Assembly (NCBI GenBank): GCA_026023565.1
Contig: JAPETS010000001.1
Location: forward strand, 806,001 to 870,000
Direction: 5' to 3'
DNA: 64,000 nucleotides
From: Cirrosporium novae-zelandiae
Lineage: Eukaryota
Below, piece by piece: positions 36,558 to 53,451 of this stretch. The position numbers were made by a program, and so were the translations under genes. Position 1 is the first letter of the stretch; each line of letters opens with the position of its first letter. The notes under the pieces are model-generated. The model did no database searches. It worked only from the letters and a program-made list of their open reading frames with translations, and was not told the origin of the DNA.

Positions 36558-36639
36558 TGCTCCCGACGGGACTCGAACCCGTGCCTCGAGCAGACCAGAT
36601 AAATGGGAAGCTCGAATTCTACCCCTGAACTACGGAAGC
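36558..36639 (-). tRNA. tRNA-Gly(CCC) with 11-nt canonical intron (36593-36603)
   Basis: GCTTCCG TA GTTC AGGGGTA GAAT T CGAGC TT CCC A [TTTATCTGGTC] T GCTCG AGGC ACGGG TTCGAGT CCCGT CGGGAGC A; all stems pair; T6 terminator (A6 at 36530-36535). Confidence 0.93.
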
Positions 36640-39659: not shown

Positions 39660-39821
39660 GGGGGATTGGCGCAATGGTAGCGCGTGGTAAGGGCATTGAA
39701 AAAAATACAAAATCCCGATTCACCGTTTCTAACAAATAACAGGCTCTCCTACTTTCGCTAGTTAATAGCAGAAAATATATTGGATAAGCCAAGGCTGTGG
39801 GTTCGAGTCCCATGTTCCTCG
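39660..39821 (+). tRNA. tRNA-Arg(CCU) interrupted by a 56-nt spliceosomal-type intron (39687-39742) in the anticodon stem and a 34-nt canonical intron (39752-39785)
   Basis: Mature 72 nt: GGGGGAT TG GCGC AATGGTA GCGC G TG|GCT CT CCT A|A AGCCA AGGCT GTGGG TTCGAGT CCCAT GTTCCTC G; anticodon stem TGGCT/AGCCA forms only after GT-AG removal; acceptor stem has three G.U pairs. Confidence 0.85.
39687..39742 (+). other. Spliceosomal-type (U2) intron inside tRNA-Arg(CCU), between bases 28 and 29
   Basis: Donor GTAAGG, branch point TTCTAAC (39727-39733), acceptor AACAG; size matches the window's mRNA introns. Confidence 0.82.
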
Positions 39822-46041: not shown

Positions 46042-47425
46042 TCACTTAGCAGCTGGGGGGTTCTGGGCAAATTGAACGCCCTTCTCAATATTTCCCTTTA
46101 GGCCTGGGTAGCAGGCGCTAAGCAGTTTCTTTTCGTAATCATTGGCATTTTTAACCATGTTGATTGCTTGCTCGACACCGTTGGGCTGGGAAATATTAAT
46201 ATGGGAACATAGGCATTAGTCGAAGGAATTAACATACACCGAGGACTACAGGGACCGAGAAGTACTCGCAGCCAGTGGTCTGTGCGATTGGCTTGCCTCC
46301 TGGAACGCCAGGAAGGTAGACAAACGAAGGTTCAACGATATTGGCTTCGCCTTGTGCAGCACTGATCAGCTTGGTAGCAAAGCTAAAATAGTTAGCATGT
46401 GAAAAATCGAATTTTGAGTTCAAGAGAAAGATACCGATAACCAGCCCAAGCCATTGAAAGAGTAGCTGATCCAGCTCCCTCCTTGGCCTTGACGACCTCG
46501 TCACCACCGAACTGTACACCTGTAAATGATATTATTAGCAACAAGTTTAAGAATTTTATGAGCGTAATTATTCTTACGGTTGACAAGGGCATCTAGCTTA
46601 TCGGCTGGAATATCGACTGGGGGCTTGGCTTGGCTGAATAGAGGCACGATTGTCTCCCCAGAGTGTCCACCAATTACTGGGACAATTGTTGCTGTTGGGT
46701 CACTTCTTCCAGCAATGTCGGCAACAAAGGTTTCAGCTCGGACGACATCTAAAGTTGTCACGCCAAAAACTTTCCGGGGATCATAAACACCAGCTTCTTT
46801 GAGAACCTCGGCAGCAACAGGTACAGTCGAGTTGACAGGATTGGATATTACAAGAACAAATGCCTTAGGACAGTGTTGGGCAACGCCGGTGATGAGAGTT
46901 CTAACAATTCCCGCATTGACTTTGAAGAGATCATCACGAGTCATTCCAGGTTTGCCTATGAGGGATATTAGCTACCCTTGCCGAGGTGCCGAGTAGAAGC
47001 AGCGGAGTATTCACGTGGAATGCCAGCAGGGATAACAACAATATCAGCACCAGTCAAGGCTTGCTTGAGGCCATCGTCTTTAGGAAGGAAGCCAACGATT
47101 TTCTAAATTGAGTCAGCCTATCCTGCTGATGAGAAATTTAGGAGGAAGCCCATTACCGCTGGAGATGAAATGTGAGAAAGATCAGCTGCAACGCCTGGGG
47201 TATTGACAACATCATATAGAGCAAGTTCATTGATTTGAGAGCAAGTCTTTAGAAGAAGGGACAATGGCTAAGGATAAGAATAATGTTAATAGGAGTTCTT
47301 GATTAAGAGGGAGTTTGGCTCAGAGATTTACCTGGCCAATGCCTCCAGCAGCACCGAGTACAGCTATCACGCCATTAGTGTCATTCAATGCTGGATAGAC
47401 ATGTTTAAAGCTTACCAGCTTTCAT
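46042..47425 (-). CDS. MDH: NAD-malate dehydrogenase without mitochondrial presequence (cytosolic/peroxisomal type), many short exons
   Basis: [81 protein letters not shown]. Confidence 0.94.
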
Positions 47426-48024
47426 TTTGATAAGTATAAGATGAAGGGAGAAGGTTTTTAAGAATAAAGAGTAGAAAACGGAGATTGAGTGGAGATGAGA
47501 GAGAAAGAAGAGAGATGAAGAACTTTACGAGAGAAGGAAATTGGGCGGAGGGGATGGGCGAGATCCTAATAGTCTGTAAATACTCCTACCTTACGATTAC
47601 CCCTCTACGTCAGCTCTCCTAACCCCGTGCACCTTGGAAGTCTCGAACCATAATATCAACATTTTCATCCCCATTAATTCAAGAACCACCACAAAATCGC
47701 GGGGTTTGTTTACTGGGACTTAAATGGGTCCATTTCCCCGGATGTAACTAAAATCTAGAATAAAATAGGCTTGATATCAACTAGATGCGTTCGTTGGAGA
47801 GAAAGCTTCACGAGCCAGCGATTAATTTTCGTGAGCTTCCGATTCGTACTCGCCAGTTTTAATGGTAAGGAACCTGTATTCTGTGTATTTGAAGCTATCC
47901 TCTCCTCAGAATCATCTCCGCTCTTCCGTCACCGGATATTCTAATATCCACCCCATTCATCATTGGTCATCCGATACCACGGCCAGTATATCCCAAACAT
48001 GTGAGACAGCACTCCAATAAAGAG

Positions 48025-48180
48025 GCTCCTATAGCTCAGTTGGTAGAGCGCAGCACTAGTACTACCAAAGTACTTCACCGGAGTAGCAATGCTGAGGTCT
48101 TCAGGTAAGAGTTTCTCGCCTCTTCATAGGTTTATTCAACCTTCTAACATTTGCAATTAGTTCAAATCTGAATGGGAGCA
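48025..48180 (+). tRNA. tRNA-Thr(AGU) with a 27-nt canonical intron (48062-48088) and a 56-nt spliceosomal-type intron (48105-48160) between G53 and T54
   Basis: Mature 73 nt: GCTCCTA TA GCTC AGTTGGTA GAGC G CAGCA CT AGT A|A TGCTG AGGTC TTCAG|TTCAAAT CTGAA TGGGAGC A; T-stem TTCAG/CTGAA with a 7-nt loop forms exactly after GT-AG removal. Confidence 0.9.
48105..48160 (+). other. Spliceosomal-type (U2) intron inside tRNA-Thr(AGU)
   Basis: CAG|GTAAGA donor, TTCTAAC branch point (48142-48148), TTAG acceptor. Confidence 0.87.
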
Positions 48181-48188
48181 TTCAATTA

Positions 48189-48193
48189 TTTTT
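48189..48193 (+). terminator. Pol III terminator (T5) of tRNA-Thr
   Basis: TTTTT starting 9 nt after the discriminator base. Confidence 0.65.
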
Positions 48194-48613
48194 GGCCTAT
48201 TAGACTTCCAATTTGCATTTATTGAGAGTGGCTTTGCCATCTCCCGGTTTTGTCCATCAGCAAGTTTGTTTATTTTCTATATAATTTCGACCGCTACATG
48301 CATGTGAATCCTTTGATTTCAGTTGTATCAAGTTATTTTTTTGGTAAGATATACACAGTAATAGACCTCCAGGTAAAAGTTCTCTGCATTTTCGAAAAGC
48401 CAAATATCTCGGACAGGTTATTCGGTACTTTCCACTGAGGGATTTTGTTTCGATTCTTGTTCTCATAGCTATCCCTTGAAGAGATATTTACCTCGGTATG
48501 TCTCTAAGCTAGCGATTCTTGCATGATGCCCGCTCGAGATAATCTCAGATCTAGCACTTCTTCGTGTCCCTCCATAACCGTACCCGAAGCCTGTTCGTAT
48601 CATTCCGAATTCC

Positions 48614-49327
48614 TTAAGCATCCTTCTCAGCAGCCCTCCTTGCCTTGGCGCCCCTCAACTTCCTTTCTGGGTCTTCCTTCTGTGGTCGCTGCGATTTGAG
48701 GATAGCACTTACACGTCCAACGGCGGCCTGGCGGAGGTCTGGACGGTAACTATTTTTCGCGACGTAGGACGAGACACCCTTGTAGATCCTATTTCCAATG
48801 TTGTCAGTCCTTATCCTCGGTTGAATAGGAGCTTCGGTGAGAGAAATATACTCACTTTCGGTTTGACTTGTTGGGGCCCAAGGAAACAACGTTTCTGTTC
48901 TCTTTGGGCTGACTCGATTTGGCTTCCCTCTTTGTGGTCAAGACAATGCCACCCTTATCACCCGGTTGGACTCCGACGGCCTGATATTAACCTAGGGATC
49001 AGTATATAATCTCGAGCTTAGGGCGTGAATTAAACTGGGATTAGTGTACCTTAAGGCTTGAGGTTCCGTCGTACTGTAGTCTAGGTTAGCCTATATTTAA
49101 ACAATTGATAATTAAAAATACCTTCCGAGAGTGCTTGTTCATGACATTGAGAGGATCTCGAGAGAACTGTACACCTCCACCCTGTCTCTTCTTGACGAGG
49201 TAGCAGTTCTGGGTACCTAATATGGGTCAGTTCCTCATTATCAAGCATACAATTCTTCTTTAGCCAAATACAACATACGGGTGATTTCCCAGACCAAGTC
49301 TGAAGAAGCGTTTGAGAGAGTGGCCAT
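48614..49327 (-). CDS. RPL28: 60S ribosomal protein eL28 (L28e), multi-exon
   Basis: MATLSNASSDLVWEIT, NCYLVKKR, FSRDPLNVMNKHSRKY, SYRPDLRQAAVGRVSAI. Confidence 0.9.
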
Positions 49328-49769
49328 TTTTGTTATGTTCTGATGTGCTGCTGCTATCTTCCCAAGAGCACTGAATAATTAAAGTGATTGTGCGAACTTT
49401 CGAGATATTCTAATTCCGAAAATAGCAAAATAAACGAAATGTGTGGCTTGTGTAGTTGGTGGCTGAGTGATACAAGGCCCTTAATTAGTGCCTTGGTGTT
49501 CTCGGATCAAAACACCCCGCTGTTTCCGGTTGATGGATGGGCAGCGTCAGATGCAATGGTAATGACGGCCGCGTGGACTTGGTGGGCGTCTTCTTCTTCC
49601 TCTTCTTCTTGGTTGATAAATACAAAATACAATGAAATAATTGATGACTCTCATACTCTATAGAGCTTTTGACCTACAACACAACTCTACATTATACCTC
49701 ACACTTTCCTTTAATTACAATAATCCACTTTTCTTTGCAATTTCAACCAATTTACCACTTCTTTGAAAC

Positions 49770-50196
49770 ATGGCGTACCTTCTTTACAGCGTCTCCTTCA
49801 TCGCTCTCATAATTGGGACTAGTAAGTCGTAGGTTCCTAGTTGTGGAAGTGCCCCCCTGCTAATTACTCGGATTAGTCCTCTACCTATCACGCTCCCGCT
49901 GGCTTCCTTTACTTCCAGTTCCAAATACCATCTATCAACGTATCCCCAACACCTTTTTTGACGATGTGGAAGCTGGTCTCCATTCGGAAGATTTTAATCT
50001 AGCCGGAAACATCACCTCTGGTGATACACGTGCAGGTCTCGATGAAAGAGGAAAAAGAGAAGTACAACGTATCATGAAGAAGAAGCATGTAGGCTTCGAC
50101 GAGGCACGACGGTTGTATATGGAAGATGGATTCAAGAAGAATGGTATCGCTGCCGACGGATTACCTAAGGATCCCAAATTTGTCTCGTTTTCATAA
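49770..50196 (+). CDS. Small conserved fungal membrane protein (UPF0357/DUF2015-like), 1 intron
   Basis: Hydrophobic N-terminus; FFDDVEAGLHSEDFNLAGNI..GDTRAGLD; FDEARR; IAADGLPKDPKFVSFS*. Confidence 0.8.
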
Positions 50197-51555
50197 GGGG
50201 CATCGCATTAGCTGGGAATATGTCTGTGCCATAGGTATTGGTTCCAGCTACTTCGGCTATGGAAACTGTTGGATACCATTTTTCATGAGCGGCTGAAGCG
50301 TGGAGTTTGGGACTGGTTTGATTTGAAGTTCTCGAATATATCCATTCGTTTGTGTTAGCTTCCCTTATTATGAAATTTTTTGGTTGAATATTTACCCTTG
50401 TCATCAGTCAACCAAAGAATACAAGCACTAGTTGTATCCTAGTTTTGGATATTTGATACCGATGCATATATATATAGTTTCTGTGAAGATGCCCCAACCC
50501 ACGCCCTATTAGTTTTGGCTGATACGTTCCAAGCTATAAAGCAATAGTGTGACAGAACATTTGAAATCACAAAATCCATTTTGCTTTGGGACATTTCCAA
50601 GATGACATGTGCCGAAGTCGGCCTCCATCAAGGCTTAGAATTCGTTCTAGATATTTATTTGATTTAATGTTCATCCATATGTCAATGACCTGTTATAATT
50701 CTAACTACCTAGGTATCCAACCGCCAATCCTCCGTCCAGGGAAATGTTACTCTTCAACGGTTATTTTTGTATATTTCAATGTCATAGGGGTAACGTCTTC
50801 TACATCTCTAGACTATTTACTATTTTTTGGTATTGCCCTCTAGTTGATGGATAGGTTCTTGTGCTTTTTCACCTTTGCTCTTTCCATAGGCTGTAGTGCA
50901 GAGTTACACGTTCGAGAACCGATCCTGTTGACTGCTCAGCATCCGCTTTTCGATCCCTTATCTTTTCGATTTATACTATTTAAGGCTGTAGGAATATAAA
51001 TGCAAATACGAAAAAAGAAAAGAAAAAGACCATAGTTCCATTTAAGTAGATAAGTGTATCACCCTTCTTAATCATAGAACCTGTAACCATTCTTCAAGAG
51101 TAGGGGAGACTCTTGTGATATCTAGTCGTCTTATAAAGATGACCGAGATTGCTGTCAGTCACAGGGAGGATGTAACTCAGTAATAAGGTTTATTTCTTTG
51201 ATACACGGAGTTAAGTAGTGCGTGCTAGCAAATGCTAATATCAATACCTTGAATATTCCATGTACAACCCCTAGCGAATATATACAAGGGGGGATATTCT
51301 CGGGTAAGGCTAGACCAACCGACCCAAGAGTTTATAAACATAAACATCATATTATATATATCATTTAAACAACAAGCTAAATTATATCTTTCCAGTCATA
51401 ACCATAGGTATAAGCTGTAGTTACACCAATGACCTATTTGATGACACCTTCCCCAACGTGATGATAAAAACAAGAATACACATCATTATGATGCTTATAA
51501 TTTCCCTACCCATTATTTTGGCCTAAATACCTTTTTCCAAGGCTCTCCCTATAAA

Positions 51556-53451
51556 CTATCGAAATCCTTCGCCCTTATCTGACCCGGTAGTAGAAGATGG
51601 GTGGTCTTTTAGTGCTTTCCCCCATACATTCTCGAACTCGAGTTCAGTGCCACACTCCCCGCCTCCAACGGGGATGTTTGGTATACTAATGAGGCTTTCT
51701 TCCCCTCTTACAGCCATTTCGGTTGTTTTACCCTTGTTGCTTGGATCGTTGCTCTTCCCCGAGTCTGGCGACGATGGCGCAAAAGCGTAGGACTCTCCGT
51801 TACCGCAATTAGATCCAGGGCTCTCAAACTCGAAATTGCTACTATACACCACGGCAGCAAAAGCCTCTAGGTCTCTCACGCTTTCGATTGCTTGAAGGTA
51901 TTCGTTTGGTGGAGTGTCAGTGCCGATGGCGTGTGCCTGTCTTGTCATTACTGCTAAGATGTTGGCGAGTTTTGTCTTAGCTACTTTACGCTCCTCTTCT
52001 GTGACGTAGCTATCTGGAAGTTCGGAAACGCGGTAGTCCGTAGGGCCAGAGCCAAAGGGATCGATTTCAAATGCCGAGGGTGTGGATACGGAAGGCGCTG
52101 GTGTAGGTGGTGGCAGTTTGAATGCCTGAGTGGCGAGTTTTTGATCTACGAGGACGGAGAAGGAGGAGTCGAGGAGGAGGGTTAGCACATGGCTAAAGGG
52201 AGGGGAGTCGATGAGGTCAGAGGTTTCGTCTAGGAGACGGCGGAGGGAGGCTGGCGAGGAATGGGGTTGGGACGGGAAATCAAGGCCAGTTGGTTGAGAA
52301 AATGACATTCCTGATTCCTGGAGGACAAGATCTTCTTGGTCGCGCGGGGGTAGTATGAAGGAGAGCCATTTTTTAGATCTGCGTTAGAAGATGTTAATAA
52401 ATGTTGGCATATCCCAAGATTATTGTTTGTCAATACCTTCTTTCCTCTTCTGTGACACCCTCGACCCGTTTCCTGACCTCAATAGTCAACTCTGATAATC
52501 TTAAAAGCGTGATATCCTCTCTTGGACTTCTCGGCCCAAAAACCTCCTTCACCGCTGCCTCAACCTGTTCCCGGATTTCTCTCCAGCCACGATGTAATAA
52601 CCACCAGCTAAATGTTAGATAGCGACGGTTTGTCTCAAAATCATTCCCAAAAGCTTGTTCGAGGTTGTCATCATCATGGTTTTCAAGACTAATGGTAGAA
52701 TCGTCAGGGCGGCGCGAGGCTAGAGAAACGACACTGGAAAGATAGTTTCGTCGGCCGAGGAGGTTGAGTTGAATACGTGTAAGAAGCGTGAGGAGGGTGA
52801 GTGTGTATATTAATGTGAATGCGCGGGTGATGGCTGTTGAGTAATCAGATACACAATCTCAACCAAGAGGTTCCTTCTGGGAACATACAGCTGATCTTCA
52901 GTTCATTCCACAACTGAACCTTGCTTTTCCTCGGTTTCATTTGACTGGGCTCGGCCGTTGAATCTTGAATTTGACTTGCATGGATATAGCTTTCGCTTTG
53001 GAAGCTAGCCAGACTTCGCCCATCATCATCAATGGCACTTGGCGGACCAGAGCTTATCTCGGATGGTGCAAATTCGGAAGTAGTTGTAGTTCCTCGTGCT
53101 TTCTCAGCCTTTTTCTGCTGCAGCTCATGGGTGATCTGTTCAACGGGTAGAGCCTCTAGAATATTTTCGGCAGCAGTTGGGAGGAGGGCCAGGACAGTAT
53201 AGGTGCAATCGGTCTGGTTCTGTTCAAACCTCCTTCGCAAGCTGCGTATGTTGTGGTCAGAGAAGCCTCCTAGGATGTCGGAGTAGGACGAACTTCTCTT
53301 TTGCAATCCTATCACTACTCATACGCTCACGAGCTTCAGTAAACTTTGAAACAACATATTGAGTTGCGACATAGCCAACTCCTAAAACACCAAAACCAAT
53401 TGCAAAGTTGGTCCGATTGCGTCGGAGCCATCGTCTGGTGGCAGAAATCAT
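51556..53451 (-). CDS. PEX3: Peroxin Pex3, multi-exon
   Basis: RRWLRRNRTNFAIGFGVLGVGY, RIAKE.LRRRFEQNQTDCTYTVLALLP, LWNELKI, IQLNLLGRRNYL, LLDETSDLIDSP. Confidence 0.93.

Follow-up and report, generated by a model that had tools for sequence, protein, structure and literature searches.

Predicted spliceosomal introns in fungal tRNA genes: a tRNA-Thr(AGU) gene of Cirrosporium novae-zelandiae interrupted within its B box

We analysed a 64-kb stretch of the genome of Cirrosporium novae-zelandiae (contig C1:806001-870000, hereafter the window) and the whole assembly (label G000, 31.4 Mb), and found a recurrent class of spliceosomal-type introns in fungal tRNA genes, which is probably functional. 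A fragment of a cap-binding protein has its best relatives at about 70% identity, the few with a name being from filamentous ascomycetes, and the organism is accordingly taken to belong to the Pezizomycotina. The tRNA-Thr(AGU) gene of the window (Table 1) is quite probably a working Pol III gene of a filamentous ascomycete with an mRNA-type intron between positions 53 and 54 of the mature tRNA (53/54). The sequence-only reading of the window had concentrated on the promoter of this gene, in which the 3' splice site was said to restore an interrupted B box; we consider the class of introns a larger result than this promoter point. The tRNA position numbering and the isoacceptor identity elements used throughout are general knowledge.

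Table 1. Features of the two interrupted tRNA genes of the window (window coordinates)
Feature	Coordinates	Strand	Basis
tRNA-Thr(AGU) gene, two introns, 73-nt mature cloverleaf	48025..48180	+	Rfam RF00005; ARAGORN after removal of the GT-AG insert
Exon 1, tRNA positions 1-37; anticodon AGT at 48058-48060	48025..48061	+	identical in paralog L056
A box (positions 8-19), intact	48032..48043	+	
Canonical endonuclease-type tRNA intron at 37/38, 27 nt	48062..48088	+	placed by the 7-nt anticodon loop
Exon 2, positions 38-53, last bases C51-A52-G53	48089..48104	+	sequence, paralog L056
Spliceosomal-type intron at 53/54, 56 nt, longest T run 3	48105..48160	+	donor GTAAGA, branch CTAAC, acceptor TAG
Branch-site motif CTAAC	48144..48148	+	
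B box in DNA: acceptor AG (48159-48160) and positions 54-62	48159..48169	+	identical to mature 52-62
Exon 3, positions 54-73	48161..48180	+	sequence, paralog L056
T5 run, likely Pol III terminator	48189..48193	+	
tRNA-Arg(CCU) gene, canonical and GT-AG intron, both boxes intact	39660..39821	+	
Spliceosomal-type intron at 28/29 of the Arg(CCU) gene, 56 nt, outside the B box	39687..39742	+	

The Rfam model RF00005 gave two tRNA matches in the 64-kb window, one of them at 48025-48180 (35.6 bits), and ARAGORN called no tRNA gene in the window. When the 56-nt insert of the Thr gene was taken out in a script, a T stem with 5/5 pairs and an ARAGORN tRNA call were obtained, although in this call the canonical intron was misplaced and the anticodon was consequently miscalled. 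With the gene left unspliced, ARAGORN found no tRNA with introns of up to 60 nt, and a relaxed run alone forced one, which was miscalled. Freed of both inserts, the cloverleaf has -24.2 kcal/mol as compared with an MFE of -25.9 kcal/mol (a gap within 1.7 kcal/mol), and the cloverleaf and conserved residues of a functional cytosolic tRNA gene are present. The canonical 37/38 intron is absent from the metagenome Thr(AGU) genes, which are uninterrupted at that point.

The 56-nt insert splits the T stem and thus lies away from 37/38 in the anticodon loop, where an endonuclease-type intron would be. Its donor (GTAAGA, and GTAAGC in the paralog described below) fits the fungal donor consensus, while the branch A lies 13 nt before the intron end, within the fungal range of 6-36 nt to a YAG acceptor, here TAG (donor patterns and range from PMC5832005; articles given by PMC number are cited from the parts of their text that were available). 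The Thr intron measures 56 nt, and the mRNA-like control introns of the genome, which were picked by motif within 45-75 nt, measure 46-68 nt. From its donor, branch and acceptor signals, we infer that the insert is a major (GT-AG) spliceosomal-type intron, and we predict that it is spliced. A paralog of the gene (L056, contig C41) carries an insert at the identical 53/54 site; all 73 of its 73 exon bases are the same, whereas the two introns and the flanking sequences differ outside the splice signals. As the paralog keeps the same site with identical exons, the insert is not a chance occurrence, and the Thr exons appear to be under purifying selection.

To survey the genome, we used Rfam together with patterns for the A box, the B box and anticodons, and the tRNA-like matches were examined, so that all counts are lower bounds. 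This yielded at least 97 uninterrupted nuclear tRNA genes under a strict filter and at least 8 tRNA genes with 9 GT-AG inserts in total, located at 13/14 (Asn), 28/29 (Arg(CCU)), 33/34 (Arg(UCU)), 45/46 (Trp, twice), 53/54 (Thr, twice) and both 53/54 and 63/64 (Val(CAC)). ARAGORN called a tRNA in 8/8 of these genes after removal of the inserts and in 2/8 before. Just two nuclear Trp(CCA) genes were found (L054 and L055, contig C39), and each carries a GT-AG intron at 45/46; tRNA arms were recognized by eye in 2 of 52 matches of a Trp arm pattern, and five other matches of the Trp anticodon motif in the genome were not tRNAs. Since both Trp genes found are interrupted, introns of this class are probably removed from the RNA, unless the assembly misses a Trp copy. 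Uninterrupted Thr(AGU) genes (L041 and L042), on the other hand, are present, which makes the interrupted Thr copy dispensable in principle.

Several of the genome loci have features of their own. In each of the two Trp genes, a further perfect match to the B box extends across the 3' end into the trailer. The Asn gene (L136, C44:299260-299760) has a 51-nt intron with an AAG acceptor and one acceptor-stem mismatch, and the 96-nt intron of Arg(UCU) (L051, C1:1745596 onward), immediately 5' of the anticodon, is pyrimidine-rich yet holds no T run above 4. Two U6 copies lie in tandem on the minus strand (L291/L292, C63:774500-775100); one has a 52-nt GT-AG intron directly 5' of the ACAGAGA box, and its neighbour has no intron, a variant 5' stem and, upstream, a B-box match in inverted orientation. 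An ordinary tRNA-Gly(CCC) with a short canonical intron only lies at 36558-36639 of the window, minus strand. Besides, we noted dispersed elements of one family, about 250 nt long, that carry motifs resembling the B box and have T-rich ends (L141, L148, L154, L155, L161), possibly a SINE or other Pol III RNA; tRNA-like loci with good acceptor, D and T arms and without a regular 7-nt anticodon loop (L061, L120, L338); further odd tRNA-like loci (L060, L152); a Ser 3' half lacking a 5' half within 1 kb (L030, C42:581243-581330) and 5' halves for which no T arm was found (L167, L343), all probably truncated pseudogenes; and C54 instead of T54 in all three Tyr genes found (L295, L296, L316). Contigs C35 and C47 give the same matches at near-equal coordinates, indicating a contig duplicated in the assembly.

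Whether 53/54 is a recurrent site had been posed alongside the sequence-only reading, and the answer is yes: the site is used in the Thr paralog, in Val(CAC) (L053) and in at least 47 metagenome loci. The metagenome search used one pattern fixed at 53/54 that demanded intact positions 54-61 and matched at least 120 loci. Among the 120 listed, 47 are fungal-type tRNA genes with a 53/54 intron, of which 35 are supported by ARAGORN after removing one or two inserts and 12 were judged by eye. The remaining 73 were discarded as chance or bacterial matches, including L179, L196 and L217, which are ARAGORN-positive and were set aside as tandem bacterial-type tRNAs. Among the matches listed, the 47 loci yield 36 different introns (50-69 nt), spread over 14 isoacceptors that could be named and one of unknown identity, the names being our own reading where ARAGORN misplaced the canonical intron. 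Across isoacceptors the introns could not be aligned (best score 6 among the first 32 introns compared), which suggests many separate gains at this position. The recurrence of 53/54 is therefore shown on the sequences compared, whereas its status as a hot spot is unquantified, given that the pattern itself demanded intact 54-61.

The metagenome 53/54 genes carry further introns at 10/11, 11/12, 30/31, 45/46, 61/62 and 62/63. A second intron at 61/62, 62/63 or 63/64 sets the B-box core apart as a small exon (8, 9 or 10 nt), and in L053 (C37:330656 onward), L188, L258, L189 and L280 the T loop is flanked on both sides by GT-AG introns. Two Pro genes (L172 and L189) contain three GT-AG introns and one canonical intron each, another Pro gene (L230) has a GT-AG intron nested in the canonical tRNA intron, and a Cys gene (L274) has a GC-AG intron at 30/31. 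A genome search for a branch site, acceptor and B box in succession returned 51 matches, as compared with 71 for a control pattern; it recovered the three known 53/54 introns, and the 18 further matches inspected were not tRNA genes. A loose B-box pattern matched too often for its matches to be listed, and the 53/54 pattern gave one match in viral contigs, not a tRNA.

With regard to the promoter, the sequence-only reading had placed the intron within the B box, after an exon ending in C51-A52-G53, and had claimed that the intron-terminal AG leaves the box unchanged and merely displaced by 56 nt. Both the sequence and a script confirmed this: every letter of DNA 48159-48169 agrees with mature positions 52-62, and the insert at 48105-48160 is 56 nt long. 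It had also been argued that the acceptor supplies the same two bases, and here the two have to be separated. The match at G53, the one that matters for the promoter, follows of necessity, since a GT-AG intron always has G as its last base and G53 is conserved in the T stem. At A52 the agreement is incidental to this gene: among the 97 uninterrupted genes position 52 is G in 68, A in 13, T in 10 and C in 6 (other columns of this base table being partly fixed by the strict filter), which makes the match in the Thr gene a coincidence of about 1 in 7, and with 31 of the 36 other 53/54 introns the DNA has A in place of G52.

The B box is read by TFIIIC. Yeast TFIIIC protects and contacts G53, and the B box governs its binding, which is not lost when the A box is mutated, according to the available text of PMC11724288 (B-box consensus as given in PMC3395662). 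Because the acceptor G coincides with this contacted base, it likely doubles as a promoter base in the Thr gene; of the double role as promoter element and splice acceptor that had been assigned to the whole AG, the G may thus keep its part, while A52 loses it, as the 31/36 changed bases indicate.

The restored B box had further been offered as the explanation of why such an insertion is viable. The intact B box agrees with this, but regeneration is an automatic property of the 53/54 junction and not a separate adaptation, and introns at 11/12 (two genes) and at 13/14, in the Asn gene, interrupt the A box without any rebuilding. The persistence of these A-box-breaking introns means that survival does not generally require regeneration. 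Rebuilding of the A box by a 10/11 intron (T8-R9-G10 through a TAG end) was considered and rejected, as the single case seen, in L172, ends in AAG. Interruption of the A box and never of the B-box core fits B-box dominance. Among independent events in the genome, 0/7 introns fall in the B-box core, for which we calculate a chance of ~0.49, so that filtering of intron position by the promoter is put forward as a hypothesis.

The distances from the start of the A box to the start of the B box are, as had been claimed, 127 nt for the Thr gene and 133 nt for the Arg(CCU) gene. An A box and a B box of a type II Pol III promoter are present in the DNA of the Thr gene (48032-48043 and 48159-48169), with an A-B linker of 115 bp, which is longer than in all 97 uninterrupted genes (31-94 bp) and outside the 31-93 bp of yeast tRNA genes (PMC11724288, in part) that serves as the linker criterion for this promoter type. 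The claim that TFIIIC tolerates such spacing consequently has to lean on the precedent of SNR6 of S. cerevisiae, which works with an A-B distance of about 200 bp (PMC5855946, in part), and not on the ordinary range of tRNA genes.

The GT-AG introns of these tRNA genes are poor in T runs. In 45 intron clusters, pooled from unknown genomes and partly curated by eye, runs of T≥4 were found in 3 as compared with 11.7 expected (shuffle test, P 0.0004), and runs of T≥5 in none as compared with 3.95 expected (P 0.011). A runs in the same clusters were not depleted (12 vs 12.7 expected), nor were T runs in 24 motif-selected mRNA-like introns of the genome (5 vs 5.6 expected); a simple count gave T≥5 in 1 of 15 mRNA-like control introns. 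The Thr gene has no internal oligo-T terminator and is followed by the T5 run at 48189-48193. Together with this T5 run, the depletion of T runs supports that Pol III would read through these introns.

We propose that TFIIIC would bind a B box completed, as G53, by the last base of the intron, and that Pol III would transcribe across the T-poor intron up to the T5 terminator. The spliceosome would then remove the 56-nt T-arm intron first and so rebuild the T arm, and only thereafter would end-trimming and the tRNA endonuclease act. One G would have two roles, as promoter base in the DNA and as acceptor base in the RNA. In this scheme, 53/54 would be the innermost harmless site 5' of the B-box core, with 61/62 as its 3' counterpart; such a promoter-safe site, combined with a splice-friendly G at the exon end, is probably why many tRNA families gained introns there. 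We put forward, with middling confidence, that these genes form an undescribed class of Pol III tRNA genes in filamentous ascomycetes which need both the spliceosome and the tRNA endonuclease, that the B box filters their intron sites, namely 53/54, where the acceptor G is the TFIIIC-contacted G53, and 61/62 to 63/64, where the core is left as a microexon of 8-10 nt, and that all cytosolic Trp decoding here is spliceosome-dependent.

A possible alternative, to which we give clearly less credence, accepts that the Thr gene is live and spliced, and attributes the recurrence of 53/54 to a splice-site or insertion preference or to spread by conversion, promoter rescue being a by-product without any filtering. 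Proto-splice-site and conversion routes are among those listed in the available text of PMC2891723, and the Thr exon ends in CAG, a donor-type ending. An exon-end G is frequent elsewhere too (10/11, 28/29, 30/31, 45/46), the positions 30/31, 11/12, 62/63 and 45/46 also recur, broken A boxes are tolerated, and regeneration at 53/54 is logically forced. However, introns also follow C or T (11/12, 13/14, 33/34, 61/62, 62/63, 63/64), so that a G end is not required; the introns cannot be aligned across isoacceptors; and none was seen inside 54-61, even at G57/A58 (G57 in 79/97), where in the metagenome set the pattern demanded intact 54-61. That the interrupted copies are pseudogenes, with the tRNA supplied by uninterrupted paralogs, is unlikely: such paralogs exist for Thr(AGU), Val(CAC), Arg(UCU), Arg(CCU) and Asn, and the Val and Asn copies have one stem mismatch each, but the Thr paralog has identical exons and diverged introns, the T stem of the Thr gene is compensated (5/5), both Trp genes found are interrupted, and the introns are depleted in T runs.

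Transcription by Pol II as a capped precursor, with the B box irrelevant and the conserved motif a T loop only, would agree with spliceosomes normally working on Pol II transcripts, and the long linker and the A-box-broken relatives would suit an unneeded promoter. We consider it quite unlikely, as the T5 terminator lies right behind the Thr gene, T-run depletion is specific to tRNA-gene introns, spliceosomes act on Pol III U6 (PMC5855946, in part) and on Pol I rRNA (PMC8527467, in part), and no plus-strand reading frame above 143 aa occurs within 47000-52000. Finally, the last five intron bases, which are common to both Thr copies, pair 4/5 with positions 61-65, and a retained insert might thereby re-form the T stem in a tRNA-like RNA whose extra arm would be very long. 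This is very improbable, given that four pairs with the 3' T-stem strand were reached by 1 of the 32 other 53/54 introns tested, that the exonic T stem pairs 5/5, and that donor and branch signals are conserved while the rest of the insert is not. Under the preferred reading of a spliced Pol III transcript, the same pairing could mask the acceptor in the Thr precursor, and it is not general.

The closest precedent is the intron-bearing fungal U6. Introns of mRNA type are known in fungal U6 genes, e.g., in S. pombe (Tani and Ohshima 1989, Frendewey 1990 and Canzler 2016, as cited in PMC5855946, in part). Both are Pol III genes with an A/B-box promoter and a GT-AG intron, which is removed by the spliceosome in U6 and predicted to be so in the Thr gene, and in both the intron contributes to the B box. 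On the other hand, the S. pombe U6 B block lies inside the intron (PMC5855946), while the Thr B box is exonic T-loop sequence with only its first two bases from the acceptor, and the Thr intron sits in a tRNA gene which contains an endonuclease-type intron as well. Like SNR6 (PMC5855946), the Thr gene has a long A-B distance and a dominant B box, although in SNR6 the B block is found downstream of the gene, and in the Thr gene it is intragenic, with a linker of 115 bp. Spliceosomal introns in ascomycete rDNA (Bhattacharya 2000, as cited in PMC8527467, in part) and in fungal U3 snoRNA (PMC5832005) are likewise GT-AG introns of about 55 nt or longer, with a branch site and clustered positions in a structured non-coding RNA; no internal promoter is at stake in these hosts. 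The available text of PMC5832005 lists U3 and U6 as the sole structured small RNAs which are often interrupted.

Among canonical eukaryotic tRNA introns, which also lengthen the A-B linker, the Thr intron at 48062-48088 can be counted; the 53/54 intron, in contrast, is located away from the anticodon loop, interrupts the T arm and has the signals of a spliceosomal intron. In the available text of two reviews (PMC10275265, PMC13149111), tRNA splicing is described as spliceosome-independent, and our full-text literature search, which covered main texts and few subscription papers, returned no report of a tRNA gene with a spliceosomal intron.

Genes of this kind would be missed or miscalled by tRNA finders, as with ARAGORN, which found none in the window. 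The common coordinate frame of tRNAs makes repeated gains at numbered positions a test of insertion preference versus selection for intron positions, and the internal promoter gives a sharp prediction, namely that no introns should occur inside 54-61. The use of one G as acceptor and promoter base is neat, but it is an automatic consequence of the position. Overall, a requirement of tRNA genes for both machineries would tie the supply of tRNA to mRNA splicing, and if this holds, Trp decoding in the cytosol of C. novae-zelandiae would depend entirely on the spliceosome.
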